From Centroscyllium fabricii (taxonomy: Eukaryota), in contig JBNRSN020000015.1 of the NCBI GenBank assembly GCA_051313645.2, positions 60,946,001 to 61,010,000 on the forward strand: a DNA stretch of 64,000 nt, given 5' to 3'. The number at the start of each line of letters is the position of its first letter. The stretch's first letter is position 1. Below the pieces are notes generated by a model that saw only the letters and a list, made by a program, of their open reading frames with translations, was not told where the DNA came from and searched no databases. A program made the translations under genes and the position numbers. Below are positions 28,008 to 64,000 of this stretch, piece by piece.

Positions 28008-29106
28008 CGGCCAAGGTATTGACTTGGATGGAGAACTGGTTGGCAGACAGAAAGCAAAGAGTTGCAATAAACGGCTCTTTTTCCGAGTGGCAGGCAGTGA
28101 CTAGTGGGGTACCACAACGATCGGTCCTTGGACCCCAGCTATTCACAATATATATTAATGATCTGGACGAGGGAACGAGATGTAATATCACCAAGCTTGA
28201 GATGACACAAAGCTGGGTGGGCGTGTGTGCTGTGAGGAGGATGCCGAGAAACTCCAGTATGATTTGGACAGGTTGGGTGATTGGACAGAAGCATGGCAGA
28301 TGTAATATAACGTGGATAAATGTGAGGTTATCCACTTTGGTGTCAAAAACAAGGCGACAGATTATCTGAATGGCAATAGATTGGGAGAAGGTGAAGTGCA
28401 ACAAGACCTGGGCGTCCTTGTGCACCAGTCGCTGAAGGTAAGCAAGCAGGTGCAGCAGACAGTTATGTTGGCCTTCGTAGCAAGAGGGTTTGAGCACAGG
28501 AACAAGGATGTCTTGCTGCAGTTGTACAGGGCCTTGGTGAGACCATATCTTGAGTATTGCATACAGTTTTGATCACCTTATCTGAGGAAGGATGTTCTTG
28601 CCATGGAAGGAGTGCAGCGAAGATTCACCAGGCTGATACCTGGGATGGCAGGAATGATGTATGAGGAGAGATTGGGACGATTGGGCTTGTACTTGCTGGA
28701 GTTCAGAAGAATGAGAGGGGATCTCATTGAAACTTATAAAATTCTAACAGGACTGGACAGACTAGATGCAGGAAGGATGTTCCCAATGGTGGGGGAGTCC
28801 AGTACCAGGGGTCACAATTTAAGGATAAGGGGTAGCCATTTAGGACAGAGATGAGGAGGAATTTCTTCACCCAGGGAGTGGTGAACCTGTGGAATTCTCT
28901 ACCACAGAAGGCAGTAGAGGCCAATTCATTAAATATATTCAAGGAAGAGTTGAATATATTTGTTCAGGCTAAAGGGATCAAGGGATATGGGGAGAAAGCA
29001 GGGACAGGGTACTGAAATTGAATGATCAGCCATGATCGCATTGAATGGTGGAGCAGGCTCGAGGTGCCGAATGGCCTACTCCTGCTCCTATCTTTTATGT
29101 TTCTAT
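28008..29106 (+). mobile_element. CR1 LINE 3' fragment, decayed
   Basis: VTSGVPQRSVLGPQLFTIYINDL and later ORF2 motifs; tail (tttctatg)n continues after the MITE at 30207. Confidence 0.92.
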
Positions 29107-30206
29107 GGGTGGGAAATTCGTGCGTGCATGTATTCGGCGCTAAAATTGGCGCTGTGCTAAAAATTAGCGCCGGCGCTAAATTAGCGCCGAGGCGGCCGAT
29201 TATGGCGTTAGCGCCGTCGTTGCAGATTTCGGTGCTAATTCACGTCTTGCACAGCTTCCAGGCGTCCACTATCTTGCCGCTAATTGCCGTTCCCGAGCGC
29301 AGCATTCCCTCACTAACTGCTTGCTTCCCCATGACCTCTGCAGCCGATTAGATCTTAAATGAGAAGCAGAGCAGCATCCTTTCCTCCCTGCACTCTGATC
29401 AGTTGCCAACCGCGGGCCCCCCTCCCCCCCTCCCCCCCTCCTCGCACTCTGATCAGCTGCCGATCTCCCTCCCCCCTCCTCGCAACCTAATCAGTTGCCG
29501 ATCGGGGGCCGCCCGACCCCCCCCCCGCCCGCGCTCTGATCAGCTGCCGCTCTCCCTCCCCCCTCCTCGCACTCTGATCAGCTGCCGATCGGCGGCCGCC
29601 CGACCCCCCTCCCCGCTCTCTGATCAGTTGCTGGATCGGGGGTCGCCCGACCCGCCTCTCCGCTCTCTGATCAGTTGCTGGATCAGGGGTCGGGCAACCC
29701 CTGATCGGCAACTGATCAGAGAGCGAGGAGGGGGGAGAGAGATCAGCAACTGATCAGAGTGCGAGGAGGGGGGAGGGAGGCCCGCGGTCGGCAACTGATT
29801 AAAGAGCGGGGAGGGGGGTCGGGCGGCCCTACCTCCCCGCTCTCTCATCAATTGGCTGCTCGGGCCGACTCCCCCATCAGCTGGCCGCTCGGACCGAAGA
29901 GGGAGTGTGGCCCTTTTAGCAGCGCTGCAGCGGCCACTCAAACCTGCTGCAGCGCTTGCCGAAGCTGGTGCTGGCAGCGCGGGGTGGGGTGAACTGGCGC
30001 AACAGCAAATTTTGGGCGCAGCCCGGCGGGCGTTGCACACGCATTTCCACGAGGATTGCTGATCGCTAATTAGCGCGCGCTAACGTTTAGTGCTGGCGCT
30101 AATCACTATGCCAATTTAGCACCCGCCGCTAATTTTGGTGCTAGGTCGGCGCTGGCCTATTAGCGCCGATTTTTGGCGCTAATGGGCTGGCGCCAATTTC
30201 GCGGCC
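29107..30206. mobile_element. GC-rich Harbinger-type MITE inserted in CR1 tail, TAT TSD
   Basis: tat on both flanks; GAAATT/AATTTC terminal motif; many GCGCTAA/TTAGCGC subterminal repeats; homologous to 40824-41800. Confidence 0.85.
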
Positions 30207-33100: not shown

Positions 33101-33415
33101 ATTAATCTGAAATTAAACATAAAATGCCGGAAATGCTCAGCAGGTCAGGCAACATCTTGACCTCAGACGTGATGCGAGGTTATCCACTTTGGTGGCAAAA
33201 ACAGGAAGGCAGATTATTATTTGAATGGCTATCGATTGGGAGAAGGGGAAGTGTAATGAGCCTGGGTGTCCTTGTGCACCAGTCGCTGAAGGTAAGCATG
33301 CAGGTGCAGCAGGCGGTTAAGAAGGCAAATGGTATGTTGGCCTTTGTAGCGAGAGGGTTCGAGTACAGGAACAAGGATGTCTTGCTGCACTTGTACAGGG
33401 CCTTGGTGAGACCAC

Positions 33416-33682
33416 TGTGGTAAACCACTGCATATATGTATGTAACCATCTGCATTGTGTGTGACCTCTGCTGTACTGTACATAGCCTTTCATGTGTAGC
33501 TTGCCCGTGCTGACCCCGCCTGCGGCTCCTCCTCCTCGGACCCAGGTATAAAGGTGACTGTCTCCCTCCCCCATTCATTCTGGGCTCAGTCGACTAGCAT
33601 GGGCATGCTCATGTCTTAGTTAATAAAAGCCTATAGTTCACTCCTCAACTTCTAGTCTTTTGAAGTTATTGATTAGGCATCA
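33416..33682 (+). repeat. 5' LTR (267 bp) with TATAAA at ~33547 and AATAAA at 33622
   Basis: Differs from the 281-bp 3' LTR by 4 substitutions and indels of 1, 10 and 3 nt. Confidence 0.95.
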
Positions 33683-36600
33683 ATTTTATTAACTAAGTTT
33701 TCATCATGGAGCAAATGCTGAAACCCGCGACGTTAGAACTAGATCCCCAAGCGGCAGGTGCCTCTAACGCTTTTACGCACTGGTTCTCTTGCTTTGAGGC
33801 GTACCTCGAAGCCTCCGCCGCGATCGTCCAGACGGATAGGGACAAACTGCGCCTCCTCAACACCCGGGTGAGCCCTCAGGTGTACTCAATCATCGCGGAC
33901 GCTACGTCCTAGAACGAGGCGGTCAGAACTCTGAAGAGCGAGTATACCCGGGCACCTAACGTGGTCTACGCCAGACACCTCCTGGCCACCCGAAAGCAGC
34001 AACCCGGGGAATCGAGCGAGGAGTTCCTGCGAGCGCTGAGAGTCCTCTGCCGGGCCTGCGATTGTAAAGTGCAGTCGGCCGCCGTGCACGCCGAGACCCT
34101 CATCAGAGACGCCTATGTCGCCGGCCTCAGGTCAGACTATATCAGGCATAGACTGTTAGAAAAGGATGGCCTGGACCTGCAGGCGACGGTACAGCTTGCG
34201 AGCTCGCTGCACCTGGCTTCCCATAATATGGCCGCCTACAACCCTGACCACGCGGGCACATCGCAGATGCCGCCATCTTGGACGCAGCCGGCCGCACCGC
34301 GACCCACGGACGAGCTGACCGCGGCGACAACCTCGAAGACCCGAAATGCTATTTCTGCGGCCAGGCCCAGCACCCCAGACGGAATTGCCCGGCAAGGGAC
34401 GCGACCTGCTCCAAGTGCGGGAAGAAGGGCCACTACGCCAAGGTATGCAGAGCGGCAGCGCAATCGACCCCCAAACCCGGCAGCGCCGCATGTGGCCCGT
34501 GGGGGCCGCCATCTTGGACACAGCCGGCCGCACCATCTTGGACACAGCCATCTTCAACACAGCCCGCCGCGTGGGGGCAGCGGGGGCCGCCATCTTGGGA
34601 CCAGGCCCCAGAACCCTCCACCGACCCGACGGTCCTGACTCTGGCCTCAATCACCCTCGACCAAGACAAGAGACAACCACTCAACAAATCGATGATGTCG
34701 GTGCAGGTGAATGGCCGCACTACGGGCTGCCTTTTCGACAGCGGGAGTACGCCGAGCTTTGTACATCCAGACACGGTAAAGCGCTTCTCCCTAACAGTAA
34801 CACCGGCAAGCCAAAACAGTTCAATGGCTTCGAGGTCCGAATCAGCGGACGCCTGCGGTCGCTGCGTAGTGACCCTGACAGTGCGGGGTGTAAACTTTGA
34901 ACATTTTAAGCTATTCGTGCTGCTGCAGCTCTGCGCTCCCCTGCTGCTGGGCCTCGATTTCCAATGTCATCTCCAGAGCATGACAATGGCGTACGGTGGG
35001 CCCATTCCCCCGCTCACGGTCAGCAACCAGCGCTCCACACAGTGCCCACAGTGCACTACCTGTGGCCTCTTGACCCTTAAGGTCACCCCTCCCTCACTCT
35101 TCGCCAACCTCACCCCGGACTGCAAGCCCATCGCCACCAAGAGTAGGCGCTACAGTACCGGGGACAGGGACTTTATCAAGTCGGAGGTGAAACGGCTTCT
35201 GAGGGACGGGGTCATTGAGGCTAGTAATAGCCCCTGGAGAGCCCAGGTAGTGGTTGTAAAGACCGGAGCCAAGCACCGAATGGTCATCGACTACAGTCAG
35301 ACCATTAATCGGTTTACGCAGTTAGACGCGTATCCCCTCCCCCGCATAGTGAACCAGATCGCGCAGTATCGGGTCTTTTCGACCATCGATTTAAAATCTG
35401 CGTATCACCAGCTCCCCATCCGCCCAGAGGACCGCCACTATACTGCCTTCGAGGCAGACGGCCGCCTCTATCACTTCCTTCGGGTTCCATTTGGTGTCAC
35501 CAACGGGGTCTCGGTCTTCCAACGGGAGATGGAGCGAATGGTGGATCAGTACGGACTGCGGGCCACTTTCCCGTATCTGGATAATGTCACCATCTGCGGC
35601 CACGACCAGCAGCACCACGACACCAACCTCCAGAAATTTCTCCACACCGCCAAAACCCTGAACCTGACCTATAACACAGACAAATGTGTATTCAGGACAA
35701 CCCGCCTCGCCATCCTCGGCTGTGTTGTGGAGAATGGGGTCATCGGTCCCGACTCGGACCGCATGCGCCCCCTCCTGGAGCTTCCCTTCCCCCACTGCCT
35801 CAAGGCCCTGAAAAGGTGCCTGGGCTTCTTTTCTTATTATGCCCAGTGGGTCCCCAACTACGCGGACAAGGCCCGCCCACTCATTAAATCGACCTCTTTT
35901 CCCCAGTCGGCAGAGGCTCGCATGGCCTTCAGCGGCATCAAACAGGACATCGTAAAGGCCGCGATGCACGCGGTGGACGAATCAATCCCGTTCCAGGTGG
36001 AGAGCGATGCGTCCGACTTCGCCCTGGCCGCCACCCTTAACCAGGCGGGCAGACCCGTGGCCTTCTTCTCGCGCACCCTCCAGGGCCCCGAAACCCGACA
36101 TTCTTCCGTTGAGAAGGAGGCCCAGGCCATTGTGGAAGCAGTGCGACACTGGAGGCACTATCTGGCCGGTAAACGATTTACCCTGCTGACTGACCAATGC
36201 TCAGTCACGTTTATGTTCAACAACAAACAGCGGGGCAAAATCAAAAACGACAAGATATTGAGGTGGAGAATCGAACTCTCTCCGCCTTCAATTATGATAT
36301 CTTCTACCGGCCCGGGAAACTCAATGAGCCCTCAGATGCCCTGTCCCGCGGTACATGTGCCAGCGCACAAGTAGACCGTCTCCAGACCCTGCACAACGAC
36401 CTCTGTCACCCGGGGGTCACCAGGTTCGTTCATTTCATTAAGTCCCGCAACCTCCCTTACTCCATCGAGGAGGTCAGGACCATGACCAAGAACTGCCGGG
36501 TCTGTGCAGAGTGCAAGCCGCACTTCTTTCGGCCGGACCGGGCACAACTGATAAAGGCCACCCGCCCTTTTGAGCGACTCAGCGTCGACTTCAAAGGGCC

Positions 36601-37567
36601 CCTCCCCTCCTCTAACCGCAACATGTACTTCCTCAATGTTATTGACGAGTACTCACGTTTCCCCTTCGCTATCCCCTGCCCGGACATGACCTCCTCCACG
36701 GTCATTAGGGCACTGCACAGCATCTTCTCTCTGTTCGGGTACCCCAGCTACATCCATAGCGACCAGGGCGCCTCTTTTATGAGCGATGAGCTGCGTCAGT
36801 TTCTGCTCGCCAAGGGCATTGCCACGAGCAGGACTACCAGCTATAACCCCCGGGGGAACGGACAGGTGGAGAGGGAGAACGCCACCGTCTGGAAGGCCAC
36901 CCTATTAGCCCTGCGGTCTAAGGGCCTCCCAGTCTCCCGCTGGCAGGACGTCCTCCCCGAAGCGCTCCACTCCATTAGGTCACTTCTTTGTACGGTCACT
37001 AACGCCACCCCTCACGAACGACTCTTTGCCTTCCCCAGGAAGTCGGCTTCAGGGACCTCGCTGCCATCATGGCTATCATCCCCAGGACCTGTCCTGCTCC
37101 GGAAGCACGTGAGGGGCCATAAGTCGGATCCCCTGGTCGAATGGGTCCGTCTCCTCCACGCCAACCCCCAGTACGCCTACGTGGCGTACCCTGACGGGCA
37201 GGAGGACACGGTGTCCATCAAGGACCTGGCACCCTCGGGTGCCCCCGAGACCACCACGACCCGCCAGCCCGCACCCCTCCCACCCCCACCGCCACCCTCG
37301 AGGCACCAGCACCACGGTACGTCCACCCGGCACCTGCAGGAAGCACGGTATGGCCCCCAAATCTGTCGCTACGCACCCGCCGGCCGGACGACGAATGGGA
37401 GAGCGTGCCAGTGACCGTACGGGACTTCGCGTCGGAACAAGCACCGCCGCCGACTCCACCGCCAACTGTACGTCGATCTACAAGGCAGACCAGACCGCCC
37501 GAGAGACTGAACCTCTGATGGTTGCCCTAAATTACCCTGCCGTACTTTGTTTTAAGCAAGGGGTGAA

Positions 37568-37848
37568 TGTGGTAAACCACTGTATATATGTATGTAACCA
37601 TCTGCATTGTATGTGACCTCTGCTGTACTGTACATAGCCCTTTCATGTGTAGCTTGTCCGGGCATGCCCGTGCTGACCCCGCCTGCGGCTCCTCCTCCTC
37701 CTCGGACCCAGGTATAAAGGTGACTGTCTCCCTCCCCCATTCATTCTGGGATCAGTCGACGAGCATGGGCATGCTCATGTCTTAGTTAATAAAAGCCTAT
37801 AGTTCACTCCTCAACTTCTAGTCTTTTGAAGTTATTGATTAGGCATCA
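37568..37848 (+). repeat. 3' LTR (281 bp)
   Basis: Follows the polypurine tract; direct repeat of 33416-33682. Confidence 0.95.
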
Positions 37849-38880
37849 ACCACATCTTGAGTACTGTGTGCAGTTTTGGTCGCCTGATCTGAGGAAGGAT
37901 GTTCTTGCCATGGAGGGAGTGCAGCGAAGATTCACCAGACTGATACCTGGGATGGCAGGAATGACGTATGAGGAGAGATTGGGTTGATTGGGCGTATACT
38001 CGCTGGAGTTTAGAAGAATGAGAGGGGATCTCGCTGAAACTTGTAAAATTCTAACAGGATTAGACAGATTAGATGCAGGAAGGATGTTCCCGATGGCCGG
38101 GGAGTCCAGAACCACGGGTCACAGTCTAAGGGGTAAGCCATTTAGGACTGAGATGAGGGGTAATTTCTTCACCCAGAGAGTTGTGAACCTGTGGAATTCT
38201 CTACCACAGAAGGCCGTTGAGGCCAATTCATTAAATATATTCAAGAAGGAGTTAGATATACTTTTTAAGGCTAAAGGGATATGGGGAGAAGACAGGGACA
38301 GGGTACTGAATTTGGATGATCAGCCATGATCTCATTGAATGTCGGAGCAAGCTTGAGGGGCCGAATAACCTACTCCTGCTCCTATCTTCTATGTTTCTAT
38401 GTGAACTCTGTTTCTCGCTCCAAGGATGTTGCCTGATCTGAGTATTTGCAGCATTTTCTGTCTTCTCGGAGGCCTTCCGTTACCATCCGGAGCCTTGCAT
38501 GCATCCAACAGCACTCCCTACACACTTAAAATCCTTTTCACATCTATTGCAGCAAGCCATTATTTCACTAAAATCAAAGAAACCCAGTCCAAAAGCTTAA
38601 ATGTAAGTGCCTTTCCTCACCCTGAGTTATTCCTTTCCTCTCTGTGCTTTTCCTCGATTTCAGATGTTATCGTATTCTTAAATGTTCTCCTCTCTTTGGT
38701 GTCTCCCCTCACCCCAGTTGGGAACTTTTCACTTGAATTATGAGCAATCACAAGCAGAAATTCATGCTCTACCACAGTAGGACACAGCAGAAAGCATCAA
38801 TGCATTTTTACCACAGAGCCATCCTCATTTTGAAATTAATTATGTAACTATGTCTATAAGTATAGACAGTATTTCATATT

Positions 38881-40722: not shown

Positions 40723-40823
40723 ACCAAAATCTGGCTGCTCAAGTGAGTTAAGTTCAAAGTGAAATACAAATCCTAGTTCATTATCTTCCATGCATATTCT
40801 ATTTGTAACTGGACCAAGTTAAT

Positions 40824-41800
40824 GGGCGCAAAATTCGTGAGCGCACGGATTGGGCGCTAAATTTGGCGATGTGCTAAAATTTAGCAGCGGCGCTAAATTA
40901 GCACCGAGGTGGCTGATATTGGCGCTAGCGGTGGCCTTGAAGATTTTGGCGCATATTCACGCCTTGCAAGGCTTCCAGGCGGCCAATATATTGCCGCTAA
41001 TGGCCGTTCCCGGGCGCAGCGCTCCCTCACTAACTGCTTGCTTCCCCATGGCCTCTACAGCTGATTAGGCCTTAAAGGGGAAGCAGAGCAGCCTCTTTCC
41101 CTCCCCGTTCTCTAATCATCTGCCAACCGCGGGTCATCAGCAGCCGCGATTATCCCTTCCCCCCTTCCCGATCTCCAATCAGCAGCCGTGGCCATCCCTT
41201 CCCCCCTTCCCGATCTCTGATCAGCAGTCGCAGCCATCCCTTCCCCCCTTCCCGATCTCCGATCAGCAGTCGCGGCCATCCCTTCCCAATCTCCGATCAG
41301 CAGTCGCGGCCATCCCTTTCCCCCTCCCCGCTCACCGATTAGCAGCCGATCTCCTCCCCACCCCCCTCCCCGCTCTCCTATTAACAACCGATCTCCTCCC
41401 CCCCTCCCCGTTCTCCGATCAACTGGCCCATTGGGGCGCCTCCGCCGCTCTCTGAGCAACTGGCCGATCTGGGACCGAAGAAGGGGGGTGGCCCTTTTAG
41501 CAGCGCTGCAGCGGCCACTCAAACCCGCTGCAGCACTTGCAAAAGCTGGCGTTGATAACGCGGGGGGCGGTGGAAAGGCGCTAAGCCCAATATCGGGCAC
41601 GGCCCGCCGGGCGGGCATTGCACACACATTGTCATGACGATCGGTGATCGCCAGGCGGCGCAGCGCTAACGTTTCGCACCGGCGCTGACCACTAGGCCAA
41701 TTTAGCGCCCGGCGCTAATTTGGGTGCTACGTCAGCGCTGGCCCATTAGCGCTGATTTTCGGCACTAATGGGCCGGTGCTAAGGCGCCAATTTCGCAGCC
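40824..41800. mobile_element. GC-rich Harbinger-type MITE, AAT TSD
   Basis: aat on both flanks; collinear with 29107-30206; own ~39-bp internal tandem repeat at ~41135-41300. Confidence 0.85.
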
Positions 41801-43582: not shown

Positions 43583-44223
43583 TGCAGCCAGAACGGTGTT
43601 ACTTACTCCTCTAAGGTGCTGGAGGCATGCCAAGCATTTGGCAGCATGTCCTTCACACCTTGAAGGAGAAAGTAATAAATGCAAGCAGTCACACAACACC
43701 AGGTTATAGTCCAACAGTTATAACCAGCGCTGTGCTCCCGCAGTTCTGGTTTCACCCAGCGGGGTTTAAGGTGATGGGGTTCCCGGGAAACAGGGCAAAA
43801 TGGCTGAGGGCCCTTAAAATGGCATTAAAGATGCCAATTAAGGGCCCTTAATGAGGTGACAACCCATCCCCGCCGCTTTCTCATTTTACCCCGCCCAGAT
43901 TACCCGCCCCGAAACCTTCCCGCCGCTGACCGGCGGGGATGGGTTGTCACCTCATTAAGGGCCCTTAATTGGCATCTTTAATGCCATTTTAAGGGCCCTC
44001 AGCCATTTTGCCCTGTTTCCCGGGAACCCCGTCACCTTAAACCCCGCTGGGTGAAACCAGAACTGCGGGAGCACAGCGCTGGTTATAACTGTTGGACTAT
44101 AACCTGGTGTTGTGTGACTTCATGCATTTATTACTTTCTCCTTCAAGGTGTGAAGGACATGCTGCCAAATGCTTGGCATGCCTCCAGCACCTTAGAGGAG
44201 TGAGTAACTCCGTTCTAGCTGCA
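43583..44223. repeat. Long inverted repeat: two 293-bp arms, 55-bp spacer
   Basis: 43583-43875 is the reverse complement of 43931-44223 with about 6 mismatches by eye. Confidence 0.95.
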
Positions 44224-61204: not shown

Positions 61205-64000
61205 TGTAGCGCCGGCAGGGCCTAGGAACCACACGTGAGCCAGAGCTAGAGAAAACACAGCTTTAATATACTGGTCCAAAACAAGAAAGAGAGTGAACCA
61301 CTCGCAACAAGCGTATTTAAACAGTCCCACGGTTGGTGACGTCATCGCGTCGGCCGACGTGGTGGCGTCGTCACGTCACCCGGATGAGCGGGGCTTTGCT
61401 CCGCGGAGTTCCCGTGGCGGATTCGATGTCCCAGTGGGCGTGCCGCCACACAGCTCCCCCCAGAATCCGTCCGGGGAGAAATAGTAACAGTGTCTATGTG
61501 TGCCGTTGGGGTGGCCGGATGATGCGGCCGGACCGTGTTGTCTGTTGCTCCTGGTTCTGCGGTGGAGTGTGGGCGGGTTTTGTTGCGGGCGGGCGACCGC
61601 GTTGTGGTGGTTGTGCGGGGACCGTTGTCTCACCCGCTATAACGTGTGCCGGCTTGAGCCGGTCTATTGTCACAGTGTCAGTCCTGTTGCCCATTTTTAG
61701 TTCAAAAGCTTTAGCTCCCGCCCGAAGCACTCTGTAGGGGCCATCGTACGGTGGCTGTAGTGGGGATCGGTGTCCGTCGCGCCGGACGAACACAAATTTC
61801 ACGTTTTTAATGCCGTCCGGCACCCGAGCTGCCGGCTCTCTGTGCCGGGCCACTGGTAGTGGCTGGAAAGCTCGTGCCGGGTTGGCGAAGTCTTTTAAAT
61901 ACTGGTCGGCTGACCAGGGAGCGTTGGGCTCAGCCAGAAACTCGCCCGGCAGCGTTAAAGTTTGGCCGTAGACGAGCTCTGCTGCCGAGGTGTTTAGGTC
62001 TTCCTTGACTGCCGAGCGCAGCCCGAGGAGAACCCATGGAAGGCGGTCGGTCCACGACGCGTCCTTGAGCGTGGCTCGTAGTGATGCCTTCATTGAGCGG
62101 TGGAACCGTTCGCATAGCCCGTTCGCTTGTGGGTGGTATGCGGTTGTTCGGTGTAGTGTCACCCCAAGGTCGCGGGCGATGGCCGCCCATAATGCCAACG
62201 TAAACTGGGGTCCTCTGTCGGAGGTGATGTCTGTGGGCACGCCGAAGCGGGCGACCCAGGTGGCGATGAACGCCCTGGCCAAGTCCATGGTGCTGGTGGC
62301 GGTGAGGGGGACTGCTTCTGGCCAGCAAGTGTTGCGGTCGACCATGGTCATTAGGTGCGTGTGGCCCCTGGATGGCAGTAGTGGCCCGACGAGATCGATA
62401 TGGACGTGGTCAAAGTGTCTGGCCGGCACTTTAAAAGTCTCCAGCGGTGCCCTGATGTGCTTATGCACTTTGGAGCGCTGGCAGGCAATGCAGGAGCTGG
62501 CCCAGGCGCGGACGTCCTTGCGCAGGCCGCGCCATACGAACCGGGCCGAGATTAATTTGATGGACGCGCGGGCGCCGGGGTGGGACAGGTCATGGGGGGT
62601 CCTAAATATGTGTCGCCTACAAGCGTGGGGTACGACTGGCCTGGGCTGTGGCAGGGATACATCGCAGCAGACGATGGTGGCAGCGGGGCCGTGCGCGATA
62701 TTGGCCAAGTGGAGGCCGGGGAGATTAGCTGCTGGGCGTAATCGACCGCCATTTGGGCGGCGTTAATGGCGGGGCGTGAGAGGCAGTCAGCGACCACGTT
62801 GTCGCGGCCGGAAATGTGCTGAATGTCGGTTGTAAATTCCGACACGGCCGCGAGTTGGCGCTGCTGCCTGGCCGACCAGGGTTCGGCGACCTTAGCCATC
62901 GCAAACGTGAGTGGCTTATGGTCGCTGAAGGCTGTGAAGTGGCGGCCCTCCAAGAGGAAACAAAAGTGTCGCACTGCCAGATGGAGAGCGAGAAGCTCCC
63001 TATCGAAGGCGCTGTATTTGACCTCTGGGGGCCGGAGTTGCCGGCTGAAAAAGGCCAGGGGCTGCCACGAGTTGCCGGTCCACTGCTCAAATACGGCCCC
63101 GACCGCATGGTCGGAGGCATCGGTGGTGAGGGCTACTCTGGCGTTGGGCCTAGGGTGGGCTAGGAGGGTGGCGTTTGCCAGGGTGGTTTTAGTTGCGGTG
63201 AAGGCGGTGGTGGCGTCGGCCGTCCACTCGACCGCAGCCTTGTTGGACTGCCCGCGGGTGGCCTGGTATAAGGGGGCCATGAGGGCGGCTGCTCCCGGGA
63301 TAAAGCGGTTATAAAAATTAACCATGCCTAAGAATTCCTGCAGCCCTTTAATGGAGTGCGGGCGGGGGAATTCCTGTACCGCCTGCACCTTGGAGGGCAG
63401 GGGTATGGCCCCTGTTTGGGAAATGCGGTGGCCGAGGAAGTCAATGGTATCGAGGCCGAATTTGCACTTGGTGGGGCTTAAGATAAGGCCGTGTTCGGCC
63501 AGGCGCTGGAACAGGGTCCTGAGGTGCAGGAGGTGTTCCTGGGGGGAGGTGCTGGCCATGAGGATGTCGTCTAAATAGACGAAAATGAACTTCAAGTCCC
63601 GTAGGACCGAGTCCATGAGGCGCTGGAAGGCCTGGGCCGCGTTTTTAAGGCCGAAGGGCATCCTAAGGAACTCGAAGAGCCCGAAGGGGGTAATAACGGC
63701 CGTTTTAGGAATGTCCGCCGGGTGTACCGGAACCTGGTGGTAGCCACGCACCAGGTCGATCTTGGAAAAGATCGTACAACCCGCTAATCTGGCGGAAAAA
63801 TCCTGGATGTGGGGTACGGGGTACCTATCCGGGGTGGTGGCGTTGTTTAGGCGGCGGTAGTCGCCGCAGGGGCGCCAACCTCCGTCGGGCTTGGGAGCTA
63901 TGTGGAGAGGAGAGGCCCAGGGGCTGTTGGAGCGGCGGATTATACCGAGTTGCTCCATGGTGCGGAACTCGGTGCGCACTATCTCCTGCTTGGCCGGGTC
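61205..64000 (-). mobile_element. Ty3/Gypsy LTR retrotransposon, 3' half (RT-RH-IN plus 3' LTR), truncated by the window end
   Basis: ORF 62552-63979 with [23 protein letters not shown]; ORF 61494-62708 with HxxxH..CxxC, HIDLVGP, SDRG, GLCER, GPY; frameshift near 62730; PPT ggggggag; LTR 61450-61205 with TGTGGCG...CGCTACA ends. Confidence 0.95.

Follow-up and report, generated by a model that had tools for sequence, protein, structure and literature searches.

Self-priming of reverse transcription has been described for a small set of LTR retrotransposons. Tf1 and Tf2 of Schizosaccharomyces pombe, Tj1 and the Tf1/sushi chromoviruses carry no primer-binding site (PBS) directed to a transfer RNA (tRNA), and their PBS pairs instead with RNA encoded by the element's own long terminal repeat (LTR). 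In Tf1 the RNase H cleaves the element's own leader between bases 11 and 12 (PMC7175516). For Tf1, self-priming is an experimental finding; for Tj1, sushi, Tcn1 and plant TAR elements it is a prediction (PMC7175516, PMC4600332, PMC6317226, 10.1101/2022.12.06.519325). As these sources present it, only fission-yeast Tf1-type elements have been shown experimentally to prime themselves, and among animal elements the related sushi group alone has been inferred to do so. The element considered here is a Ty3/Gypsy retrotransposon at positions 33416-37848 of a 64,000-nucleotide (nt) stretch of the Centroscyllium fabricii genome (contig JBNRSN020000015.1, positions 60,946,001 to 61,010,000), hereafter the window; its features all lie on the forward strand. 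The account to which we incline, with appreciable reservations, is that it is a defective member of a Gypsy clade widespread in animals, which would use an internally cut piece of its own leader as primer. That the clade primes itself in one form or another is held with far greater confidence.

Covariation between the LTR arm and the primer-binding position

At the position where a PBS is expected, nucleotides 33684-33697 (TTTTATTAACTAAG) are the exact reverse complement of an arm at 33615-33628 (CTTAGTTAATAAAA) within the 5' LTR, and no TGG of tRNA-type sites follows the LTR end, just as a previous sequence-only reading of this DNA had reported; the flanking pairs on both sides mismatch. Matches to the complement of the PBS position are confined to the two LTRs (starting at 33615 and 37781). 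When the LTR was shuffled preserving dinucleotides, a complement of at least 14 nt arose in 0 of 5000 trials (the best was 13 nt, once), and within the window 41 of 9096 positions (0.45%) have a complement of that length in the preceding 267 nt. The 91-nt region folds with z = -4.0, and an equally good fold was found in none of 200 shuffles. No tRNA gene was detected by ARAGORN within the window, an Rfam scan of 33300-34000 gave four weak matches, all far below the gathering scores, and none of the 40 best-supported among 831 contig differences in public runs falls within 33615-33697. Of the two additional stems proposed earlier, the inner hairpin aacttc/gaagtt (33647-33652/33662-33667) is retained in the predicted fold and is not conserved in relatives; attgat/atcaat is predicted only before the PBS is made and gives way in the full leader to GCCTA/TAGGC (33629-33633/33674-33678).

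The exact end of the LTR is set by empty copies of the target site, found in four public runs (34, 31, 20 and 2 contigs), in which 33410 joins 37849 with five letters fitting either side. This joint yields a 5-base-pair (bp) target-site duplication (TSD), ACCAC, at 33411-33415 and 37849-37853, an LTR end CA at 33682, and A33683 as a single-nucleotide spacer, so that the primer 3' end would indeed lie 1 nt from the LTR edge. A 5-bp TSD together with a CA end was found in 18 of the 20 two-LTR loci examined, the window included, out of 29 LTR pairs. An LTR one letter longer, ending in CAA with a 4-bp TSD (ccac), had been kept in reserve; the empty sites and the 5-bp TSDs of the relatives rule it out.

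The relatives were gathered with a 44-protein alignment, which retrieved 80 of 460 metagenome loci and seven genome loci. From the resulting 88 sequences (87 loci plus the window), 26 without the gag N-terminus and five with gag too near a contig start were left out, and the remaining 57 regions upstream of gag, each subjected to an unbiased search for its longest inverted repeat, were grouped into 28 families, 19 of them single loci, each represented by its member with the longest stem. A perfect duplex of 9-19 bp at the PBS position was found in 27 of the 28 families, the exception being L022, where the contig start cuts within the arm. It reaches at least 11 bp in 25 of 28 families, compared with 13 of 2800 shuffles, and 16-19 bp in nine families. 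At the level of single copies, 52 of 57 regions have a stem of at least 9 bp; four of the other five (L016, L017, L043, L063) show deletions or decay and the fifth is again L022. In 25 of 27 families the stem begins one base after the LTR CA, the other two having a variant LTR end, and the spacer base is A in 24 families and T in three. The PBS position is itself highly variable, with 25 distinct 11-nt sequences among 27 families, beginning TTT in 24, TTA in two and TCT in one, and in none with TGG. RNAalifold applied to a plain MAFFT alignment predicted 14 pairs, 13 of them with two-sided changes, and the local duplex at the 5' end is strongly favoured in all 27 families (mean pair probability 0.87-0.99). 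Two copies may represent variants of the design: in one (L056:148-300) the PBS-side sequence is doubled before gag, and another (L057:110-230) has a deviant LTR end and a stem of only 9 bp.

The alignment of relatives that had been put forward as a check has been carried out, and the compensatory changes between arm and PBS seen across the clade strongly support self-priming without a tRNA. No host RNA could track 25 PBS variants, and the duplex stops at the very position required of a primer end; the element's own RNA is therefore very likely the primer. The same diversity, with each PBS sequence fitting its own LTR, argues against an internal tRNA segment acting as primer in the manner of the half-tRNA of copia elements.

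A second helix at the predicted cut site

A conserved TAAA closes the arm, and in 23 of 27 families RCC comes next. The RCCW next to the arm is predicted to pair with a WGGY inside the LTR, forming a second helix (P2) that is conserved at the arm 3' end and had no place in the sequence-only reading. In the window its strands are GCCTA, directly after the arm at 33629-33633, and TAGGC at 33674-33678. The summed energy of P2 over the families amounts to -172.7 kcal/mol, against -73.9 ± 14.7 kcal/mol in shuffled loops, and the excess depends sharply on the start position, with z of -6.9 for helices beginning at +1 and -5.1 for those at +2, but never below -1.4 between +3 and +9. In addition, all five families that start with ACC carry GGT and no GGC in the loop. 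The 3' partner of P2 lies 1-54 nt from the PBS. The junction of the duplex and P2, at 33628/33629 in the window element, is likely to be the natural place for a cut freeing the primer 3' end, and by analogy with Tf1 the RNase H of the reverse transcriptase (RT) is the likely nuclease. From the 27 natural variants this predicted cut site (TAAA^RCC, where the two helices join) can be read with single-nucleotide precision, so that short RNAs offer a direct test of the mechanism.

According to the proposed mechanism, transcription would start 20-80 nt upstream of the arm (at 33577 in the window element), and the leader would then fold so that the arm/PBS duplex and P2 meet at 33628/33629. Cleavage at this junction, possibly by the RT RNase H as in Tf1, would leave a primer of about 50 nt ending in ...UAAA on the PBS. 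RT would copy from 33683 back to 33629 and then jump to the RNA 3' end, a transfer that would rely on the 10-30 nt separating poly(A) signal and poly(A) site. Later, plus-strand synthesis would copy the primer back into the PBS, and both arms would thereby stay matched automatically. A young family of ten copies, about 99% identical, offers a possible glimpse of this process: L008 carries G>T in the arm of each LTR and the corresponding C>A in the PBS; in L014 both LTR arms are altered and the PBS is not, as expected of a first generation. These two states would follow if the LTR arms of the progeny derive from the RNA 3' end and the primer serves as template for the PBS only in the next round.

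Primer start, poly(A) signal and competing explanations

A second question concerns the poly(A) signal. In the window element, AATAAA occupies 33622-33627 within the arm, and it had been suggested that one duplex both supplies the primer and hides the 5' signal, leaving the 3' signal open. Across the clade, A[A/T]TAAA stands at the arm 3' end in 19 of 27 families, in 18 of which it is the sole such word from -100 to the LTR end, and the median probability that the hexamer is unpaired falls from 0.55 to 0.04 once the PBS is included in the fold, a drop that makes masking at the 5' end plausible. However, the remaining eight families keep the duplex without the hexamer in the arm, which means that masking is not required; it is thus probably a side benefit in 19 families and not the core function of the duplex. 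The 5' signal could also be suppressed by the nearby cap, given a start just 45 nt upstream of it. As for the 3' LTR, the openness of its signal did not prove robust. An imperfect second partner of the arm lies inside the LTR itself (33666-33678) and pairs with it in some folds, where the hexamer of the window's 3' LTR has an unpaired probability of 0.08-0.15, as against 0.73-0.81 under other folding spans; the signal of this element is therefore not reliably open. This partner could form an alternative hairpin in the 3' LTR that switches with the PBS duplex. A subfamily comprising L001, L003, L038 and L047 has an arm ending in GTTAAA, with AATAAA in the loop in L001 and L038, so that poly(A) signal and primer end appear to be uncoupled in it.

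The position at which the primer starts separates an internal primer from a geometry closer to that of Tf1, in which transcription would begin at or just before the arm (for instance at 33618) and the primer would be the first 11-16 nt of the RNA, either by convergence or by ancestry. The window element contains a candidate TATA box (TATAAA, 33547-33552) and, 30 nt after its first base, the predicted start A33577 within an initiator (Inr)-like TCATTC (33575-33580); this pair has textbook spacing and lies 41 nt upstream of 33618. It also has an Inr-like TTAGTT within the arm, whose A is precisely 33618, 11 nt from the arm end. Watson-Crick pairing between arm and PBS occurs in 48 of 54 cases at -12/-13 (permutation mean 24.5) and in 47 of 81 at -14 to -16 (29.4 ± 3.6), dropping to the chance level at -17 to -20, which indicates that the RNA includes more than 11 nt of the arm. 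This pairing, together with the 16-19-bp stems, weakens the specific candidate of an 11-nt primer beginning at the A of TTAGTT, which is nevertheless retained as a rival. Upstream of the arm end, an Inr-like TCAKTY is found within 16-80 nt in nine of 27 families (3.4 ± 1.6 expected, p = 0.002). The Tf1-like start has its own support, since 18 of 27 families have an A at -11 and 21 a G at -10, 11 nt is the length of the Tf1 primer, the stem of L056 consists of exactly these 11 nt, and a primer as long as the duplex would allow a clean second-strand transfer; but seven of 27 families have T at -11. A splice acceptor as the reason for the conserved AG at -11/-10 was discarded, given TG in several families and pairing that runs across it. 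Taken together, the internal primer is favoured by these sequence patterns, and the Tf1-like start is considered unlikely, though it is the competitor most to be reckoned with. The different self-priming design suggested by the sequence-only reading accordingly stands as a preference, drawn from pairing out to -16 and the upstream start signals at 33547 and 33577, and not as a demonstrated feature.

Several observations weigh against an internally cut primer and temper this preference. A P2 of at least 3 bp is absent in three of 27 families, and the position of its partner varies. The choice of the longest-stem member to represent each family favours the covariation result. The TCAKTY enrichment test was chosen after seeing the data, and TATA boxes are not enriched upstream in the relatives (2 of 27 families, 2.4 expected). 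The A exactly 11 nt from the arm end is often part of an Inr-like YAG, which fits a Tf1-like primer of that length. If the primer exceeds the duplex, part of it would remain unpaired when the second strand is transferred, and the proposed mechanism must accommodate such a tail; selection acting on the 3' copy of the arm could also explain the pairing at -12 to -16. Finally, the primer-copying signature consists of two copies only, L008 and L014.

Other explanations depart further from a primer cut in cis. The element's own RNA might prime in a different form, either through the arm copy at the 3' end, in an RNA circle or on a second genome copy, or through a trimmed short LTR transcript. Each LTR contains the arm, in front of the poly(A) site, so that both RNA ends carry it, and this arrangement would likewise account for pairing beyond -11. 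Against it stand the strongly favoured local fold at the 5' end of the leader in all 27 families and the fact that strand transfer would lose its acceptor if the 3' copy were used, and L014 fits a PBS copied from the 5' arm of the parent; we therefore hold it to be distinctly improbable. Still less credence is given to the view that the duplex serves mainly to hide the 5' poly(A) signal or to control translation from the nearby gag AUG, with a host RNA such as a tRNA fragment or an oligo-A-ended RNA as the primer. The frequency of the hexamer in the arm and its sequestration once the PBS is present speak in its favour, but the duplex persists in the eight families that lack the hexamer there, AATAAA lying in the loop instead in L001 and L038; the duplex ends 1 nt from the LTR CA in 25 of 27 families, at the position required of a primer end; 25 different PBS sequences could not be followed by any single host RNA; and neither a TGG nor any other PBS is present. 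A chance complement or a local inversion in one decayed copy might have been entertained for the window alone, given the 41 positions with a nearby complement as long, but the recurring geometry and the compensatory changes in 27 of 28 divergent families refute it, and its probability is practically nil.

Beyond the internally cut primer itself, a wider proposal can be advanced more tentatively and at somewhat less than an even chance, namely that priming without a tRNA arose separately from Tf1/sushi, and with a different design, in a Mag-like clade whose hosts include corals, molluscs, insects and nematodes as well as sharks and rays. In this design one structure, cut at an internal helix junction right after the LTR poly(A) signal, would yield a primer of about 20-80 nt ending in that signal and silence the signal at the 5' end, and the two arms would stay matched because the primer is copied back into the PBS in every cycle.

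The element, its relatives and comparison with self-priming retrotransposons

The 5' LTR (33416-33682, TG...CA, 267 nt) and the 3' LTR (37568-37848, with the arm copy at 37781-37794 and AATAAA at 37788-37793) align with 263 matches, four substitutions and 14 gap columns. Between them lie a gag-pol region (33706-37414) with twin CCHC motifs, protease, RT with YLDN, RNase H and integrase domains and no chromodomain, and a polypurine tract (37554-37567). LTRs of this type, TSD, polypurine tract and the order protease, RT, RNase H, integrase are the hallmarks of Ty3/Gypsy elements, and the best match in the PDB is the Ty3 Gag-Pol (E 7e-103). The coding region is broken by a stop at codon 69 (33910) and by frame changes between 34218-34344 and near 36280. 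Within gag, around the zinc knuckles, 34248-34620 contains at least three copies of a unit including GCCGCCATCTTGG, a word that we take to resemble a YY1 site, and one of the frame changes falls inside this stretch. In place of YxDD, the RT catalytic motif reads YxDN in the window (34248-36374) and in 81 of 120 homologues, those with long open frames included, an unusual active site that may bear on priming. The integrase C-terminal module, assigned by eye, reads ...WLSSPGPVLL... (G-P-V).

The closest named homologues come from rays and catsharks (67-83% identity), and further ones from corals, a sea anemone, mussels, a sea cucumber, insects and whipworm; RT identity between families is 47-88% (26 pieces). 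Twin CCHC motifs are present in 69 of 73 homologues of at least 1170 amino acids, as well as in the window frame at 34248, and the LTRs of the relatives are mostly 150-290 nt long. No Pfam Chromo match was obtained in the window integrase frame or, at E <= 0.01, in any of 30 full-length homologues. As in the Mag cluster, env is absent, the integrase module has the GxV/I form and a chromodomain is lacking. A viral-contig scan found no relative of the element, a protein atlas search with gag returned matches only to gag clusters without a name, and peptide motifs of the clade were not found in the supplements searched, some supplement files having fallen outside the search. Seven loci (L081-L087) are animal-clade elements in contigs of bacterial metagenome-assembled genomes, and some homologous proteins are labelled bacterial; most likely, these contigs are host DNA binned into such genomes.

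The surroundings of the element are also rich in repeats. The host repeat into which it is inserted (left TSD at 33411-33415) is presumably a CR1-type long interspersed nuclear element, by its sequence features. A second Gypsy pol occupies 61494-64000 on the reverse strand and runs off the window end, with its 5' LTR outside; it has a YLDD RT and is only 27-30% identical to the self-complementary clade, and we assume from its motifs that it is CsRn1/Kabuki-like. A near-perfect inverted repeat at 43583-44223, with 293-nt arms that are 98% complementary and 55 nt apart, is possibly a miniature inverted-repeat transposable element or a foldback element. Two repeat copies of about 82% similarity (29105-30196 and 40822-41782) hold GC-rich tandem units of 38-49 nt, partly arranged as an inverted pair.

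By its markers alone (twin CCHC, integrase G-P-V, 5-bp TSD, no chromodomain), the clade fits a Mag-like assignment. The Mag cluster, with its A, B and C clades (Mag, SURL, DRM, SPM, Hydra2-1, Gulliver), is described as sharing two CCHC motifs, GxV/I and the lack of chromodomain and env (PMC2774666), and the likeness extends to a host range from cnidarians to vertebrates. Culex Mag elements share the 5-bp TSD and short LTRs, which are typical though not exclusive features; however, the PBS of mosquito Mag elements is given as complementary to tRNA-Leu, -Ser or -Arg (PMC3286476), and the present clade has none of this kind. Flatworm Saci2/lennie elements likewise have a single gag-pol open reading frame and a PBS that varies between families (PMC12471100), but they differ by a 4-bp TSD and a CCCH gag motif (PMC2582038), which rule out a Saci2 identity for the clade, and their PBS was read by the author as tRNA-directed.

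With regard to the mechanism, the clade resembles Tf1/sushi in having additional helices beside the duplex and in the predicted need for cleavage to produce a free 3' end (PMC7175516, PMC4600332, 10.1101/2022.12.06.519325). The differences lie in the details. The Tf1 primer is described as the first 11 nt of the RNA, whereas here the duplex spans 9-19 bp, is probably internal and has at its end a TAAA motif, which mostly belongs to a poly(A)-signal-like hexamer. The Tf1 pretzel is depicted with two extra duplexes involving PBS-adjacent sequence, and P2 instead starts after the arm and pairs within the LTR. Unlike Tf1/sushi, moreover, the clade combines the lack of a chromodomain with a gag carrying twin CCHC motifs. 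The clade would thus work in the manner of Tf1/sushi self-priming but is not placed in that group, as the chromodomain and the pretzel features are absent. In plant TAR (copia) and in Tcn1 (gypsy), self-priming was similarly inferred from complementarity between LTR and PBS; these belong to another superfamily or to the chromovirus branch, with plant hosts, and the account given in PMC6317226 states no link to a poly(A) signal. A literature search, with Repbase and subscription journals outside its scope, found no description of priming in the present clade. Some Repbase entries are said to mention self-priming in Gypsy families, and a prior mention is therefore possible.

If self-priming does operate in this second, non-chromovirus animal clade, it arose or persisted more widely than the Tf1/sushi elements indicate, which bears on the proposal that hairpin priming came before tRNA priming (PMC3601003). 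Self-priming elements would offer tRNA fragments no complementary site to act on, and annotation tools for which a tRNA PBS is obligatory would overlook them or classify them wrongly.

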